A DNA stretch of 47,412 nt from positions 1 through 47,412 of the forward strand of contig MFZX01000026.1 in the NCBI GenBank assembly GCA_001788095.1, written 5' to 3'. The position numbers and the translations under genes are program-made. Under the pieces are notes generated by a model. The model had not been told where the DNA came from and searched no databases. It saw only the letters and a program-made list of their open reading frames with translations. Shown in pieces: positions 3,841-15,480 of this stretch. Position 1 is the stretch's first letter; the number at the start of each line of letters is the position of its first letter. This DNA comes from Candidatus Roizmanbacteria bacterium RIFCSPHIGHO2_12_FULL_37_23 (GTDB lineage Bacteria; Patescibacteriota; Microgenomatia; UBA1406; HO2-37-13b).

Positions 3841-3873
3841 CTTCGCCCCGATTAAATCGGGGCTACGGTAGGC
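3841..3873. repeat. Palindromic element with core hairpin GCCCCGATT-A-AATCGGGGC
   Basis: Perfect 9-bp arms at 3845-3863; a related hairpin occurs at 4411-4428. Confidence 0.65.
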
Positions 3874-9302: not shown

Positions 9303-9354
9303 TCAGAAATATTCTTATTATACAACGAATCCTGCGCACCTGACAGGAATAGAA

Positions 9355-9379
9355 TCCTTCATTTCGTTCAGGACTGTAG
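9355..9379 (-). repeat. 25-nt T-arm insertion element CTACAGTCCTGAACGAAATGAAGGA
   Basis: 23/25 identical to 14490-14514; both copies sit between GCGGG and TTC. Confidence 0.85.
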
Positions 9380-9415
9380 CCCGCATCTTAGGCTTCGGCA
9401 TGTCCGTCAAAGCAG

Positions 9416-9487
9416 TGCCTTTAGCGGGATTCGAACCCACATCTCAAGCTCCGGAAGCTTGCATTCTATCCGTTAAACTATAAAGGC
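9416..9487 (-). tRNA. tRNA-Arg(CCG), intact and nested inside the disrupted copy
   Basis: GCCTTTA/TAAAGGC-A acceptor, CAAGC-TTCCGGA-GCTTG, GTGGGTTCGAATCCCGC. Confidence 0.93.
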
Positions 9488-9543
9488 TGTAAAAAGCGTC
9501 GGTGGAAAGCCGCTTACATTCTATCCATTGAACTACAGGTGCT

Positions 9544-10320
9544 CTATATGAAGGCAGAAAAAACTATTATAGCTAATATGATGCGATAAAGTCCAAATAG
9601 TGTAAGACTGTTACTCTGCAGATATTTAATAAACCATTTGATAAACATAAGAGCAGAGAAAAATGACACGAGAAATCCGGTTCCGACGATCATTATGTTT
9701 TGGTTTGTGAGTAGAGAATAGTCGGTTTTAACCAAGTCTAATATTGATGCACCAATGATGGTTGGCACTGCCAGTAGATAGGAATAGACTGCCCCTTCTG
9801 ATCGCTTATATTTCATAAACATCATACCCACAATAACCGCACCAGCCCTTGATACGCCTGGGATTATAGCAAATGACTGGATAAGTCCGGCAAAAAATGC
9901 GTCCTGATATGATAAATCCGTTAGAGATTTCTTTAACGTAAGCTTTTTCTTTTGAATTAACATTTCAATAACTATAAATAAAATACCTACAATAAAAAGC
10001 GAACTTGCGATGATCGTCATGGACTGAAAAAACACAGTTTTAATTATTTCCCGCATAAAAAAACCAATAATTGCTGTGGGAACAAAAGAAATGAGAACTT
10101 TAGGAATAAGATCTTGGTGTTTACGAATATAGTCAAAATAGAGAAATATTACTGCCAAGATCGCTCCTGATTGAATAAAAACTTCAAAAAAACTAATAAA
10201 TTCGGATTGGGGTAAACGGAGGAATGAGCTTGTGATTATAAGGTGAGCTGTTGATGATATAGGAAGAAATTCAGTAGCACCTTCTACAAGTCCAAGAATC
10301 ATTACCTCAATGATGGTCAT
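9544..10320 (-). CDS. uppP: Undecaprenyl-diphosphate phosphatase (BacA)
   Basis: GLVEGATEFLPISSTAH and PGVSRAG motifs. Confidence 0.96.
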   Translation of the reverse strand: MTIIEVMILGLVEGATEFLPISSTAHLIITSSFLRLPQSEFISFFEVFIQSGAILAVIFLYFDYIRKHQDLIPKVLISFVPTAIIGFFMREIIKTVFFQSMTIIASSLFIVGILFIVIEMLIQKKKLTLKKSLTDLSYQDAFFAGLIQSFAIIPGVSRAGAVIVGMMFMKYKRSEGAVYSYLLAVPTIIGASILDLVKTDYSLLTNQNIMIVGTGFLVSFFSALMFIKWFIKYLQSNSLTLFGLYRIILAIIVFSAFI

Positions 10321-10326
10321 AGGAAC

Positions 10327-10336
10327 ATTATATAAT
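10327..10336. promoter_or_regulatory. Bidirectional -10 palindrome ATTATATAAT serving uppP and the GT4 gene (both leaderless)
   Basis: TATAAT lies 7 nt from ATG 10344 (+) and 6 nt from ATG 10320 (-), within a 23-bp gap. Confidence 0.75.
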
Positions 10337-10343
10337 ACATAGC

Positions 10344-11468
10344 ATGAAGATGGCCTTAGTTCATGATCATTTACTTGAATTCGGTGGTGCCGAACGCGTC
10401 TTTTTTGCTTTAAAACATATTTTCCCCGATTCTGATATTTATACTGCTGCTTATAACAATAACATGTTAAAAAAGCATGTTCCCGAAAGTGCGAACTGGA
10501 AAATTAATTCATCATGGGCATCGCGAATTCCTTTTTTTTCAAAACTCTATTCGCCGCTCCGATTCCTCACTCCATGGATATGGGAGTCGTTTGATCTAAC
10601 TGACTATGATGTTGTTATTTCTTCCTCAGGTTGGTTTATGTCAAAAGGTGTCATCACAAAAGACCAAACACTTCATGTATGCTATCTTCATCATCAGCCC
10701 AGATATTTATACTATTATGAAACCGCTGTCGAGTGGCAGAAATATTTCCCCGTAAAAATTTATGCCCATTTTATTAATCATTTTTTAAGAATTTGGGATT
10801 TCCAATCGAGCCAACGACCAGATTACTTTATCGCAAATTCACATGAAACAAAGAAGCGTATTCAGAAATTCTATCGCCGCGATTCAGAAGTTATATACCC
10901 GCCTGTAGATATACCCAAAGATGAAGTTTTTAAGATGCAGAAATTTGAAAAACGAGATTATTATGTCACGTTATCACGATTATCTAAGACAAAGAATATT
11001 GATGTACTTATCAAAACAGCCAACGAACTTAAGATTAAACTTAAAATCGTTGGGGTGGGAAGGGATGAAGAATATCTACGTAGTCTTGCAGGAGATTCAA
11101 TAGAATTTCTCGGGCGTGTATCCGATGAAAAGTTTGGTTCGTTATACCAAGGATCTAAAGCGTTTCTTTTTGCAAGCGTTGATGAAGAATTTGGAATCGC
11201 GCCTGTAGAAGCAATGGGATATGGCGTTCCAGTTATAGCATACGCATCAGGAGGTCTTAAAGAGACAGTAAAAGACGGGTATAACGGATATTTGTATAAC
11301 AAATTACACAAGCGATATCTTATTGAGAAAATTAAGGAGTTAGAATTACTTTCAAATGAAGATTATATGAACATGGCAAAAAACGCTCGGAAGGAAGCTG
11401 AAAAATATTCTTATAAAAATTTTGAGAAAAATATTAAAAAATTCATCAATACCTACAATCATTCATAG
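10344..11468 (+). CDS. Glycosyltransferase family 4 (WbaZ-like)
   Basis: ALVHDHL...GGAERV and EEFGIAPVEAMGYG.PV motifs. Confidence 0.93.
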   Translation: MKMALVHDHLLEFGGAERVFFALKHIFPDSDIYTAAYNNNMLKKHVPESANWKINSSWASRIPFFSKLYSPLRFLTPWIWESFDLTDYDVVISSSGWFMSKGVITKDQTLHVCYLHHQPRYLYYYETAVEWQKYFPVKIYAHFINHFLRIWDFQSSQRPDYFIANSHETKKRIQKFYRRDSEVIYPPVDIPKDEVFKMQKFEKRDYYVTLSRLSKTKNIDVLIKTANELKIKLKIVGVGRDEEYLRSLAGDSIEFLGRVSDEKFGSLYQGSKAFLFASVDEEFGIAPVEAMGYGVPVIAYASGGLKETVKDGYNGYLYNKLHKRYLIEKIKELELLSNEDYMNMAKNARKEAEKYSYKNFEKNIKKFINTYNHS

Positions 11469-12667
11469 CGGATGGCCTCAATAGGTGACATATTTGCCGC
11501 TTTTCTTGCAGGTACAACACCAAAAATAATCCCTATAAGGGTTGAAACAACGAATGCAATAATAATTGAAAGTATATTTATCTGCGCAGGGAAATAAGAA
11601 TTTATTAATAATACGAATACTATTGAAATAATAATACCTCCAATTCCTCCGATAAGTGATAACAAGACGGCTTCGGTGAGGAATTGAATGAGAATGTTAT
11701 TTCTAGTTGCTCCAACAGCTCTTCTTATGCCGATTTCTTTTGTACGTTCAACAACAGATACGTACATGATATTCATAATACCTATACCACCAACAATAAG
11801 AGATATAGCTCCGATCATAACAAGGACAGTGTTTATTGCTCCAAAAACAGAATTAATAACATTTAATAAATCAGTTTGTTCAAGAACTGAAAAATCACCG
11901 CTTTCGTAACGTCTCTCTAAGATTCTTTGGATGTCACGTTTAGCGAGTTCATATACATCTTCACTCTTTGCGCTTACGTACAATGCAAAAAATTTTTTGT
12001 CTGGATTAAATGAAAGACCGGCAGTATAAGGCATATAAACAAAAGAATCAAAATTTGATCCTCCGAGTCCACCCCCACCTTTAGCTTCACTTATTCCAAT
12101 GATTTTATAGCGCTGATCCTCAATTTTTATATCTTCCCCAAGTGCACCTTCAAAATCATCAAAAAGTTTTTTTGCCAGCTCTGGTCCAATAACGATTACT
12201 TTATTTCTTTTATCAACATCTGTTTTTTTGTAGGATCTCCCATATTGCATTTTCAGATTAAGCACTGGAAAGACATCTTCTGTTGATGCAAGAAGATCTC
12301 CTATCTCAGTCTTATTCGTGGTCGAGATCTCAATTGTTTTAATAAATGCCGGAGAAACATATGCTATATATCGACTCTTTTTTAATGAATCAACATCACT
12401 CTTATCAAATTCAGCCCCACCTAACATACCACCGCCTGGGCGGAATGAATTTCCCTGTAAAAATTTTCCAGGATAAATAAATATGAGATTTGATCCTAAT
12501 CCTTTGAACTGATCTGTGATATATTGTTTAAGCCCTAAGCCTAAAGAGATGAGTAAGACTACTGAAGCAACTCCGATTAATATTCCTAAAGAAGTGAGAA
12601 AAGTACGAAGTTTGTTTCGTCTAAAATTTGTTGTAGCTGATAAGATCGTAAAAATGTAGTATTTCAT
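11459..12667 (-). CDS. ABC transporter permease, MacB/FtsX type
   Basis: RTFLTSLGILIGVASV, GGIGIMNIMYVSVVERTKEIGIRRAVGA and PARKAA...PIEAIRYE. Confidence 0.95.
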   Translation of the reverse strand: MKYYIFTILSATTNFRRNKLRTFLTSLGILIGVASVVLLISLGLGLKQYITDQFKGLGSNLIFIYPGKFLQGNSFRPGGGMLGGAEFDKSDVDSLKKSRYIAYVSPAFIKTIEISTTNKTEIGDLLASTEDVFPVLNLKMQYGRSYKKTDVDKRNKVIVIGPELAKKLFDDFEGALGEDIKIEDQRYKIIGISEAKGGGGLGGSNFDSFVYMPYTAGLSFNPDKKFFALYVSAKSEDVYELAKRDIQRILERRYESGDFSVLEQTDLLNVINSVFGAINTVLVMIGAISLIVGGIGIMNIMYVSVVERTKEIGIRRAVGATRNNILIQFLTEAVLLSLIGGIGGIIISIVFVLLINSYFPAQINILSIIIAFVVSTLIGIIFGVVPARKAANMSPIEAIRYE

Positions 12668-12672
12668 TGTGT

Positions 12673-13341
12673 CTATTTAATAATTTTTCCGTCTTGAATG
12701 CTTATACTCCGCTTCGTTTTTTCTGCGATATGAGCTTCGTGAGTGACTATGACTATGGTAATTTTTTCTTTTTTGTTAAGATCTTCCAAAAGACTTAAAA
12801 TTGTCTCTCCTGTCTTCGTATCAAGATTTCCTGTTGGTTCATCTGCAAAAATGATTTCCGGTTCTAAGATAAGCGCTCGTGCAATAGCCGCTCTTTGTTG
12901 TTCTCCGCCAGATATTTTATTTGGATATGAATGCGTTCTATGGTCTAATCCAAATCTTTTCAAGAGGGTTATTGCTTTTATCTGAGGATCATAATCTAAT
13001 GTATGAGGATTGTATAACGTTGGTAATAAAATATTTTCTAATACAGTAAATTTATTTATTAGATTAAATTGCTGAAATACAAAACCAATTTTTTCATTTC
13101 GAAGTCTTGAGAGTTTTTCATCCGAGAGTTTTGAAGTATCTACATCATTCATCAATACTTTACCTTTTGTTGGTATATCAAGTAAACCCATCATGTACAT
13201 AAGCGTAGATTTTCCAGAACCAGACGGGCCAATTATAGAGATGAATTCACCCTTTTTGATTTCAAGATTGATATTTTGCAAGATCTCCAGGAGACTGTCT
13301 CCAATAGTATATTCTTTGTAGACATCCTGAAGTTTAATCAT
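12673..13341 (-). CDS. ABC transporter ATP-binding protein (LolD/MacB type)
   Basis: Walker A GPSGSGKS, ISGGEQQR, ADEPTGNLD and VTHE. Start set to the ATG at 13341, overlapping the upstream stop. Confidence 0.95.
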   Translation of the reverse strand: MIKLQDVYKEYTIGDSLLEILQNINLEIKKGEFISIIGPSGSGKSTLMYMMGLLDIPTKGKVLMNDVDTSKLSDEKLSRLRNEKIGFVFQQFNLINKFTVLENILLPTLYNPHTLDYDPQIKAITLLKRFGLDHRTHSYPNKISGGEQQRAAIARALILEPEIIFADEPTGNLDTKTGETILSLLEDLNKKEKITIVIVTHEAHIAEKTKRSISIQDGKIIK

Positions 13342-14359
13342 AGACCATATCACCTTTGGATAATCCAGATAAGATTTCGATAAATTCATCAGTTTCTATG
13401 CCCGTAGTTACAGTTTGCCTGGTTTTTTTGTTATTTTTTATTATATAAACGAAAGTACCCTTGTCATCTTCCTGTAAAAATGCAAAAGGAATATAAAGCG
13501 TATTGTTTTTTGATTGTGTTATAAATTCAACATCTCCTGTCATGCCAACGCGATATTTTAGATTCCCATTACTCATATTAATGAATGACATTTTTACAGC
13601 ATAAACCGTCCCGGTCTCATTAGCCTTTGGAACAAATGCAACGTGGTCGACAGTCCCAACGATTTCTTCATCAAGGTATGAGTCAAATAATAATTTACCG
13701 GTAAGACCACTTTGCAATTTAGAGATTTCTGTTTGATCAGCAGTAACTTCAAAATAAAGTGAGTCAGGCGATATGATTTCAAACCCTGCTGTTGCGGCAG
13801 TAATATTCATACCAGGTTGAAGATTGTTTGTACTTGTCACAATACCATCAAGAGGAGAAAAGAGTTGTGAGTATTCTATTGATATTTGCTGTATCTCAAC
13901 ATCTGTAATAGTGTTATCTAAATCGAATTGGGATTTATCTAAGATCCTCTGCATTGCAACTGTTAAAGCCTTATCTTTGTAGTCATCTCTTTGTTGATCT
14001 AAATCCCACCGTGCGTTTAAAAAATCATTGAGGTCTTTTTTTAAAGTTTTCTGCAGTTGACGTTGATCAAGTAAGGCAATGAGTTGGCCTTTTTGCACAC
14101 TGTCTCCTTCTTTAACTTTAATACTTGCTATTTGTCCAGTAGTTTGAAAACGAAGTTCTGCTCGTTTATCAGCTTTTATTTCTCCTGAAAGGATAAGCGT
14201 TTCTTCAAGGTTCCCTCGTTTAACTTGTGTGCTTTGTATTTCTTCTTTTCCATTTACCAAACGCTGATAAAATATAAATCCAGATACAGCAAGTATTATT
14301 CCTATAATTATGAGCGTTCTCTTCTTTCGCTTAACAAAGGTCAGAATTTTCATAAACAT
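13334..14359 (-). CDS. Efflux membrane-fusion/adaptor protein (MacA/HlyD family)
   Basis: N-terminal TM, biotinyl-lipoyl VKEGDSVQKGQ, SPLDGIV and EILSGLSKGD. Confidence 0.92.
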   Translation of the reverse strand: MFMKILTFVKRKKRTLIIIGIILAVSGFIFYQRLVNGKEEIQSTQVKRGNLEETLILSGEIKADKRAELRFQTTGQIASIKVKEGDSVQKGQLIALLDQRQLQKTLKKDLNDFLNARWDLDQQRDDYKDKALTVAMQRILDKSQFDLDNTITDVEIQQISIEYSQLFSPLDGIVTSTNNLQPGMNITAATAGFEIISPDSLYFEVTADQTEISKLQSGLTGKLLFDSYLDEEIVGTVDHVAFVPKANETGTVYAVKMSFINMSNGNLKYRVGMTGDVEFITQSKNNTLYIPFAFLQEDDKGTFVYIIKNNKKTRQTVTTGIETDEFIEILSGLSKGDMVYD

Positions 14360-14406
14360 ATGATATCAAATTAATTACAGCTTGGTATAATATGAAATAA
14401 GTACAT

Positions 14407-14478
14407 GGCTCGGTAGCCAAGTGGTAAGGCAAGGGTCTGCAAAACCCTTACACGCGGGTTCGATTCCCGCCCGGGCCT
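14407..14478 (+). tRNA. tRNA-Cys(GCA)
   Basis: GGCTCGG/CCGGGCC-T acceptor, AGGGT-CTGCAAA-ACCCT, GCGGGTTCGATTCCCGC. Confidence 0.96.
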
Positions 14479-14484
14479 CAAGAA

Positions 14485-14536
14485 GCGGGCTATAGTCCTG
14501 AACGAAGTGAAGGATTCGATTCCCGCCCGGGCCTCA
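14485..14536 (+). repeat. Duplicated 3' end of tRNA-Cys interrupted by a 25-nt element (14490-14514)
   Basis: GCGGG[CTATAGTCCTGAACGAAGTGAAGGA]TTCGATTCCCGCCCGGGCCTCA repeats 14454-14480 exactly once the insert is removed. Confidence 0.88.
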
Positions 14537-15325: not shown

Positions 15326-15398
15326 GATCATAATTATATCAGGGATTATATGTACCTTGATAACGAGGATAAAATATGCAGCCTTCCAATCCCCGGCC

Positions 15399-15480
15399 TT
15401 CTAACCCTCGGTGTTAGTAGGTTCAAAATTTTTTATTCAGACTCAACCAACACCGAGGGTTATAACACCGAGGGTTAGAA
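15399..15480. repeat. REP-like cluster: three copies of AACACCGAGGGTTA (one inverted, two tandem)
   Basis: 18-bp perfect inverted repeat 15399-15416/15463-15480, plus a tandem copy at 15449-15462. Confidence 0.85.

Follow-up and report, generated by a model that had tools for sequence, protein, structure and literature searches.

Why would the same short hairpin interrupt two different transfer RNA (tRNA) sequences at exactly the same point of the T-arm? The question arises from a stretch of 47,412 nt of Candidatus Roizmanbacteria bacterium RIFCSPHIGHO2_12_FULL_37_23 (assembly GCA_001788095.1, contig MFZX01000026.1, positions 1 to 47,412 of the forward strand), here called the window, in which a 25-nt element lies once in a broken tRNA-Arg(CCG) gene (copy A, 9355-9379, minus strand) and once in a duplicated 3' end of tRNA-Cys (copy B, 14490-14514, plus strand), each time between tRNA positions 53 and 54. 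We consider it probable that the 25-mer is a solo palindromic DNA repeat, resembling a repetitive extragenic palindromic (REP) sequence or the end of a miniature transposon, which landed in, or was copied between, the T-loop-coding parts of tRNA copies that were already redundant. Judged by their sequence, the carriers are pseudogenes from which nothing is expected to be spliced.

Re-reading of the window bore out the core of a sequence-only reading of this DNA: the two 25-mers lie at these coordinates and are identical at 23 of 25 positions, both sit between GCGGG and TTC, and each has an intact tRNA of the same type beside it, tRNA-Arg(CCG) at 9415-9487 and tRNA-Cys at 14407-14479 (ARAGORN and Rfam, by which the window holds six tRNAs). 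Each 25-mer consists of a short tag (ATAG or ACAG) and a 4-bp stem, TCCT/AGGA, around the 11-nt loop GAACGAA(G/A)TGA. The stem can form, as that reading proposed, but it is weak; the lone 25-mers have predicted folds of -3.6 and -2.4 kcal/mol (z = -1.08 and -0.29), which does not exceed what shuffled sequence gives. The 25-mer had no match in any of 100 shuffled versions of the window, and no third copy with up to 3 mismatches was found in the window or in the 1,093,306 bases of the analysed genome (G000; 45 contigs, 95% complete; handles with G, C and L denote genomes, contigs and loci). An assembly artefact, which the same reading had kept as an alternative, is ruled out by independently assembled contigs from other samples that cross both loci: locus A is spanned by Logan contigs of 643 nt and 661 nt (runs X10 and X12) with 0 differences, and the locus B remnant by contigs from X10 and X14 (0 differences) and X12 (2 differences). 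Neither a deleted nor an alternative form of either locus was seen among the four public runs compared.

Around copy A the sequence resolves into the pieces of one tRNA gene with another inside it:

9512-9542, minus strand: 5' piece of the resident tRNA-Arg(CCG), positions 1-31, identical to the L023 tRNA at 29 of 31 bases and beginning 2 nt past the uppP stop.
9401-9511, minus strand: 111-nt insert with a complete tRNA-Arg(CCG), splitting the resident anticodon arm (in-silico removal and ARAGORN).
9415-9487, minus strand: the inner, intact tRNA-Arg(CCG), with acceptor stem GCCTTTA/TAAAGGC (ARAGORN; Rfam tRNA, 66.5 bits).
9380-9400, minus strand: the resident's anticodon loop, degenerate (TGCCGAA), followed by the 3' strand of its anticodon stem, the variable region and the 5' T-stem strand GCGGG, identical to L023 at 19 of 21 bases.
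9355-9379, minus strand: hairpin copy A, CTACAG followed by TCCT-GAACGAAATGA-AGGA, between positions 53 and 54.
9333-9354, minus strand: the resident's T-loop TTCTATT, T-stem CCTGT, acceptor strand CAGGTGC and discriminator (TTCTATT-CCTGT-CAGGTGC-G), identical to L023 at 18 of 20 bases.

The outer broken gene is the lineage's original tRNA-Arg(CCG), the ortholog of the gene found in relatives. Its 5' piece, partly matched by nhmmer at 9515-9539, carries the acceptor strand GCACCTG, complementary to the CAGGTGC at the far end. When the 111-nt insert and the 25-mer are both deleted by script, ARAGORN calls a single 73-nt tRNA-Arg(CCG), while deletion of the 111-nt insert alone gives no call of the outer tRNA. 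The outer pieces match the L023 tRNA-Arg(CCG) at 66 of 72 positions, against 56 of 73 for the inner tRNA, and the outer sequence is the nearer of the two to the tRNA-Arg(CCG) of relatives in eight of nine cases. In the same family the gene order uppP, tRNA-Arg(CCG), tRNA-Ile(TAT), Phe, Gly corresponds to the outer sequence, with uppP ending within about 30 nt of tRNA-Arg(CCG) at 5 of 9 relatives' loci. Since the outer gene is orthologous by its place after uppP and is called by ARAGORN once the inserts are removed, it is the resident and the inner gene the later arrival. Signs of decay at conserved positions of the outer gene are G for U at position 33 and T for G at position 57; its anticodon stem also contains an A-C mismatch. 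A donor for the inner tRNA was not found among 223 genomes of the order, in which the best match (86%) covered only the central part and left the acceptor stem and flanks uncovered. The 111-nt insert with its substitute tRNA would have split the resident gene either before or after the hairpin arrived.

Locus B is simpler:

14407-14479, plus strand: intact tRNA-Cys(GCA) (ARAGORN; Rfam, 67.2 bits).
14480-14489, plus strand: AAGAA followed by GCGGG, 9 of 10 bases as in the AAGATGCGGG that precedes copy A (inverted repeat I1; comparison with relatives' tRNA-Arg and tRNA-Cys).
14490-14514, plus strand: hairpin copy B, CTATAG followed by TCCT-GAACGAAGTGA-AGGA.
14515-14536, plus strand: exact duplicate of the last 22 nt of tRNA-Cys, comprising T-loop, T-stem 3' strand, acceptor 3' strand and discriminator (direct repeat D9).

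The sequence that follows copy B, TTCGATT-CCCGC-CCGGGCC-TCA, repeats the 3' end of the intact tRNA-Cys; the direct repeat D9 between the two extends over 25 nt at 96%, and nhmmer finds a partial tRNA at 14515-14535 corresponding to model positions 54-74. The remnant has no tRNA positions 1-48. The similarity between the two loci is itself longer than the hairpin: it reaches 51 nt at 86% (9339-9389 against 14480-14530), including 10 nt upstream of the hairpin, and forms the inverted repeat I1 with arms 5,090 nt apart. The ten bases before copy B are native to the tRNA-Arg(CCG) genes of relatives, whose tRNA-Cys genes read differently there. Because B shares nine of these ten bases with A, the two copies may not be independent hits, and copy B was probably derived from an A-like T-arm, a step for which the GCGGG...TTCGATTCC flanks common to both could have allowed template switching or gene conversion. 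We also considered an invertible segment or transposon bounded by the 51-nt repeat, as the copies face each other 5.1 kb apart. This was rejected: the genes between them (uppP, a glycosyltransferase, a MacB-type ATP-binding cassette permease with its ATPase, and HlyD) include no recombinase, and the two outer tRNA-Arg halves that flank copy A have kept their match to one another.

The junction recurs well beyond the window. We found the hairpin between positions 53 and 54 in one further genome of the same family, in one Saccharibacteria genome and in four further metagenome contigs. In the former (G200, of another genus) it lies in a tRNA-Lys(TTT)-like remnant 19 nt past an intact tRNA-Lys(TTT), a case of which L136 is a near-identical metagenome copy. 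The Saccharibacteria copy (L061) and L139 are in Ile-type remnants after tRNA-Ile(TAT), and the other carriers are of the Arg-CCT (L135), Gly-CCC (L138) and Arg-TCG (L142) types. The T-stems vary (GCGGG, GAGAG, GATGG, ACGGG and others), and the carriers are therefore different tRNAs. In every case the hairpin has the orientation of the tRNA, an intact tRNA of the same amino-acid type stands within about 150 nt (8 of 8 carriers, the window included), and the carrier is otherwise broken, through a missing 5' half, a second insert or changed conserved positions. An insert in a single-copy working tRNA would be lethal, so that insertions at this junction would be visible only in dead copies.

Could the 25-mer instead be a non-canonical intron or intervening sequence, removed from RNA so that the carrier tRNAs still function? 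It occupies a loop of a structured RNA gene, as introns and the intervening sequences of rRNA do, and without the inserts the cloverleaf is whole again. The genome also has six copies of a different, 17-nt hairpin in a 23S rRNA gene that is apparently functional, which indicates that small hairpins in the loops of RNA genes are tolerable in this organism. We nevertheless regard splicing as very improbable. The sequence-only reading, which had raised it, asked for tRNAs whose only copy bears the insert and for co-occurring nucleases or ligases; an intact partner adjoins all eight carriers, all of them broken in other ways, and in the 95% complete genome neither the splicing endonuclease EndA (PF01974) nor the ligase RtcB (PF01139) had a match (0 each), while control searches matched. 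Neither a group I intron nor any other Rfam family was matched (E up to 5), and 25 nt is far too small for self-splicing. Locus B, the G200 remnant and L138 lack the 5' acceptor strand altogether, and the 44 tRNAs called by ARAGORN together with a tRNA-Gln(TTG) at a contig end make the carriers unnecessary. The predicted folds contain no bulge-helix-bulge at the junctions, although no search dedicated to that motif was made. Since no splicing endonuclease or RtcB was found, we read the 25-mer as a DNA insert of the REP or miniature-transposon kind and not as an intron.

The wider distribution of the hairpin supports its DNA-level character. Among species-representative genomes, the hairpin pattern gave 75 matches in 74 loci of many phyla; by record title the carriers include Chitinophagaceae, Sphingomonas, Chloroflexi, Omnitrophota, a cyanobacterium, several lineages of the candidate phyla radiation and some Gammaproteobacteria, and in many of these copies the tag before the stem is GTTAG. 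Closer to home, a related 25-mer is present in 9 of 222 other genomes of the same order, in up to 6 copies per genome (G006), and many related copies open a unit of about 100-130 nt that is closed by an inverted copy. With dispersed copies and units with inverted ends, the family resembles REP or miniature-transposon DNA in its behaviour. The hairpin corresponds to no Rfam family, and Rfam matched only intact tRNAs in the region.

How far does this family prefer tRNAs? The metagenome search for T-loop cases demanded a T-loop after the hairpin, and three of its eight matches (L137, L140 and L141) were not tRNA-like; the preference is accordingly judged by the unconstrained census alone. There, 67 of the 75 matches were not within 150 nt of a tRNA and 8 were, only two of them at the exact 53/54 junction. 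In our genome tRNAs with 200-nt flanks make up about 2% of the sequence; set against this value, 8 in 75 implies that the association with tRNAs is real. Two more copies (L106 and L123) lie in 3' remnants of tRNA-Pro and tRNA-Glu at slightly different positions. Of the four hairpins with this type of loop in the analysed genome itself, three are within tRNA 3' remnants or next to one: the two window copies and a third that adjoins a duplicated T-arm fragment just past tRNA-Leu(CAA). The proposal of a mini-element that targets the T-arm thus survives in part: the family is found mostly at unrelated sites, which the sequence-only reading had named as telling against a T-arm preference, and the junction nevertheless recurs across tRNAs and lineages.

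Other copies in the family occupy suggestive places of their own. At L083, L104 and L069 the hairpin ends at the ATG of rpmJ, rplX and rpsD, where AGGA precedes and follows the TCCT arm, and could there mask or mimic a ribosome-binding site. At L141, L055 and L059 protein-coding sequence contains in frame either the hairpin or 20 nt identical to it, the genes being a P-type ATPase (L141) and an aminotransferase-like gene; these in-frame copies read ...VLSEVEG... and ...VILNEVKDL....

The recurrent position at the edge of the T-loop also invites another explanation, namely the scar of an integrative element whose tyrosine integrase crosses over in the T-loop, the hairpin being the last piece of an element arm left after deletion and the duplicated 3' end a displaced right attachment site. 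Integrases that use the T-loop cut at its 5' edge, which is exactly where the insert lies, and locus B alone has the arrangement of such attachment scars, an intact tRNA followed by a direct repeat (D9) of its 3' end. The genome also has tRNAs followed by hairpin-free 3' remnants: at C18:11362-11399, 16 nt past the intact tRNA-Arg(TCT), for instance, a T-arm and an acceptor strand with CCA remain of a tRNA-Arg-like gene. In all carriers, however, the tRNA-specific 5' strand of the T-stem is kept to the left of the hairpin, which places the hairpin inside tRNA sequence, internal to the T-arm, and not at a junction of tRNA with foreign DNA. Only 35 nt separate the repeats at locus B, no element is present, and the window, with housekeeping genes as neighbours, has no integrase; the two PF00589 matches of the genome are on other contigs (C28 and C31). 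The hairpin is moreover common far from tRNAs, and the hairpin-plus-T-loop pattern has no match (0) in viral contigs, a result on which we also rejected a phage origin. An integrase scar is therefore an unlikely source of the 25-mer.

Equally, the remnants might be retained for a function as a tRNA-like RNA, with T-arm, acceptor strand and hairpin helping to process, terminate or protect the transcript of the adjacent tRNA, or acting as a decoy. In several lineages a module of T-stem, hairpin, T-loop and acceptor 3' strand does recur beside intact tRNAs. The outer acceptor stems have remained complementary, and a terminator-like stem with a T-rich tail overlaps the outer 3' end at 9348-9330. 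Against such a function, the 5' parts vary, with none at B, L138 or G200 and a split one at A. At A, mutations also affect conserved tRNA positions, and the 3' piece of an outer tRNA-Trp described below is kept in our genome and lost in a relative (G207). Folding of the two window modules is no better than that of shuffles. A terminator scan found 6 candidates against 3.7 expected, not above background, and none at the hairpins or at locus B, so that a terminator role of the hairpin itself was discarded. We consider retention for such a function quite improbable.

Among known systems, the REP sequences and REP doublets forming hairpins (REPINs) mobilised by REP-associated tyrosine transposases (RAYTs) come nearest to the repeat that we favour. 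Measured by the REP properties in the available part of PMC3733652, the hairpin is likewise a short imperfect palindrome (25 nt; REP range 20-40 nt). REPs have a conserved GTAG tag at one end; what precedes the stem here is ATAG or ACAG in the window copies and GTTAG in many family copies. It also occurs dispersed, singly and in inverted pairs, and sometimes in frame within genes (L141). The differences are considerable: REPs are present many times per genome, whereas the analysed genome has only two copies of the 25-mer and four of its loop type, and the hairpin flanks no RAYT gene. In addition, nearly the same 23-mer is found in many phyla, while a REP family is as a rule confined to one species. 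The portion of PMC3733652 available does not describe insertion into the T-loops of tRNAs. The same portion (PMC3733652) describes Rickettsia palindromic elements and similar palindromes as small inserts tolerated inside genes at permissive sites. Those elements sit in protein genes that still work; the carriers here are dead tRNA copies.

Transposition of tRNA introns between genes occurs in the archaeal Thermoproteales, and the likeness is evident in the same short insert at the same non-anticodon position of different tRNAs and in fragments beside a newer gene copy. Here, however, the host is a bacterium (it has a long-arm tRNA-Tyr, and its 23S rRNA gene fits the Rfam bacterial model) with no splicing endonuclease or RtcB, and the carriers are unneeded and incomplete. 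For the split tRNA genes of archaea, the part of PMC3293823 available proposes disruption of a tRNA gene by an integrating mobile element. Group I introns of tRNAs have a catalytic core of about 200 nt or larger and sit in the anticodon loop, unlike a 25-nt hairpin in the T-loop, and the resemblance to rRNA-type intervening sequences, which are excised with no ligation, is one of form, a stem-loop inserted in the loop of a structural RNA gene. A search of full-text literature, incomplete in coverage and with supplements left out, gave no report of a hairpin at the T-loop junction of bacterial tRNAs or of the hairpin sequence itself.

What might move such a repeat? The genome has three RAYT-like Y1 transposase open reading frames (on C10, C2 and C38), each flanked by its own palindromic repeat, and machinery that mobilises hairpins is thus present in this organism. 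A hairpin-recognising single-strand transposase would be a candidate mover, by which the 25-mer could insert at the 5' edge of T-loop-coding DNA; alternatively, it could spread between T-arms through their conserved flanks. By the criteria for miniature inverted-repeat transposable elements, two terminal inverted repeats and a duplication, the window copies are single ends, and related full units with two ends are found in other genomes of the order.

Several observations weigh against our reading of the 25-mer as a landed or copied repeat. None of the three RAYT-like genes is flanked by the hairpin, so that no enzyme is tied to it, and neither window copy has a target-site duplication or a second end. 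The stem is weak, with folding on a par with shuffled sequence. A general rule by which the family lands in existing stem-loops found no support, as flank complementarity of the 74 copies equalled that of a shuffled control, and such a rule therefore does not account for the T-loop preference. The derivation of B from A rests on nine of ten bases, and we estimate that 4 of the 5 positions of AAGAT would be matched by about 2% of random AT-rich 5-mers. Finally, the outer tRNA-Arg, with a perfect 7-bp acceptor stem and just 6 differences from L023 in 72 positions, has either died recently or retains some constraint.

A palindrome other than the 25-mer also occurs in structured RNA genes. The 17-nt hairpin mentioned above (CCCCGATTTAATCGGGG, of the form CCCCGATT(T/A)AATCGGGG) is present in the window at 3846-3862, in the T-loop of an outer tRNA-Met and six times in the 23S rRNA gene (C29:60563-63948), which measures 3,386 nt against the 2,925 positions of its model. 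A scan for G+C-rich inverted repeats was too noisy to be informative, with 7 of 168 near tRNAs and these mostly their own acceptor stems. The distribution of the 17-nt and 25-nt hairpins suggests that hairpin repeats prefer to land in the loop-coding DNA of structured RNA genes. Elsewhere in the window, at 15384-15480, there is a 46-nt inverted repeat with a core, TTCTAACCCTCGGTGTTA, that is also found on both sides of the C2 RAYT-like reading frame; it is a REPIN-like doublet of the C2 RAYT system.

Locus A proved to be one of a series. In our genome and its relatives, sampled at one genome per species with many of them incomplete, we met 10 further places at which an intact tRNA lies inside or just upstream of a broken tRNA of the same anticodon, often with palindromic ends; these were encountered along the way and do not come from an exhaustive scan. 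At C28:5890-6124, a 163-nt insert separates anticodon positions 34 and 35 of an outer tRNA-Trp; it contains a palindrome of 48 nt and an intact tRNA-Trp between inverted repeats of 12-13 nt (TCCCGAAGTTCT and AGAACTTCTGGGA), and its removal restores the outer tRNA-Trp (ARAGORN). A nested tRNA-Trp is also found in three other relatives of genus level (G207, G203 and G204; L149, L162 and L167), with ends CCCCGCC/GGCGGGG in G203 and G204, and the inner and outer types are each the sole tRNA-Trp in other genera of the family. At C45:486-745, an intact tRNA-Met replaces the anticodon arm of an outer tRNA-Met (acceptor stem GGCTAGG/CCTAGCC) that has a palindrome in its D-loop and a 41-nt palindrome in its T-loop. 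A nested tRNA-Cys in G204 has ends TCCCGCA/TGCGGGA and a split at 34/35. Nested tRNA-Arg(TCG) occurs in G006 and at L142, the 13-bp ends of the latter being the second longest of 150 tRNA contexts examined, and nested tRNA-Arg(CCT) at L135. The inner and outer genes have the same anticodon in every nested pair. No report of bacterial tRNAs nested in tRNAs of the same anticodon was found in full-text literature, again with incomplete coverage and supplements left out.

These pairs raise the possibility, which we put forward tentatively, that palindrome-ended cassettes with a whole tRNA gene land in the loop-coding parts of a resident tRNA with the same anticodon, kill it and replace it. Such an element, with ends of the type TCCCG...CGGGA or CCCCGCC...GGCGGGG, may carry the cure for its own insertion; only hits on a gene of the same anticodon would survive, and all nested pairs would thus share it. 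Palindromes without cargo, the 25-nt hairpin included, may then gather in the loops of the replaced genes. The tRNA-Lys remnants of G200 and G194 have a TCCCGA...TCGGGA palindrome in place of the anticodon arm.

A different kind of turnover may be at work beside some tRNA-Lys genes. Phage T4 SegB is a free-standing GIY-YIG homing endonuclease encoded beside tRNA genes, and small GIY-YIG genes of the family likewise have a tRNA within 300 nt at 9 of 27 loci. In G200 (L198), G194 (L202) and G006 (L015) the GIY-YIG gene is just upstream of an intact tRNA-Lys, which is followed by one or two tRNA-Lys remnants with the same anticodon. These remnants could reflect replacement of the homing type. The window differs in that no GIY-YIG gene was found near either of its loci.

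A profile search for partial tRNAs recovered the extra remnants of the genome, and a few further features bear on its tRNA set. At C31:10480-10560, a tRNA-like sequence missed by ARAGORN combines a well-formed acceptor stem and T-arm with a shortened D-arm and an unusual anticodon loop that includes CAT; it may be what is left of tRNA-Ile(CAT), the tRNA-Ile in use here being tRNA-Ile(TAT). The tRNA-Gln(TTG) cut by a contig end (C24:27165-27230) is preceded by a duplicate of its own first 11 nt, and a putative 3' end of transfer-messenger RNA was recognised by eye.

If our reading of the 25-mer is true, the hairpin is in itself a modest find, a small palindromic repeat that favours one tRNA junction and is visible only in dead copies. 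Following it, however, revealed repeated in-place replacement of tRNAs in this bacterial group, often between short inverted repeats, together with more palindromes in the D-, anticodon- and T-loop-coding parts of broken genes. This mode of tRNA turnover is hidden from standard tRNA finders, since only the intact inner gene is reported, and nested tRNAs could mislead annotation and studies of integration sites. They may also offer a testable instance of a mobile element making good the harm it does.

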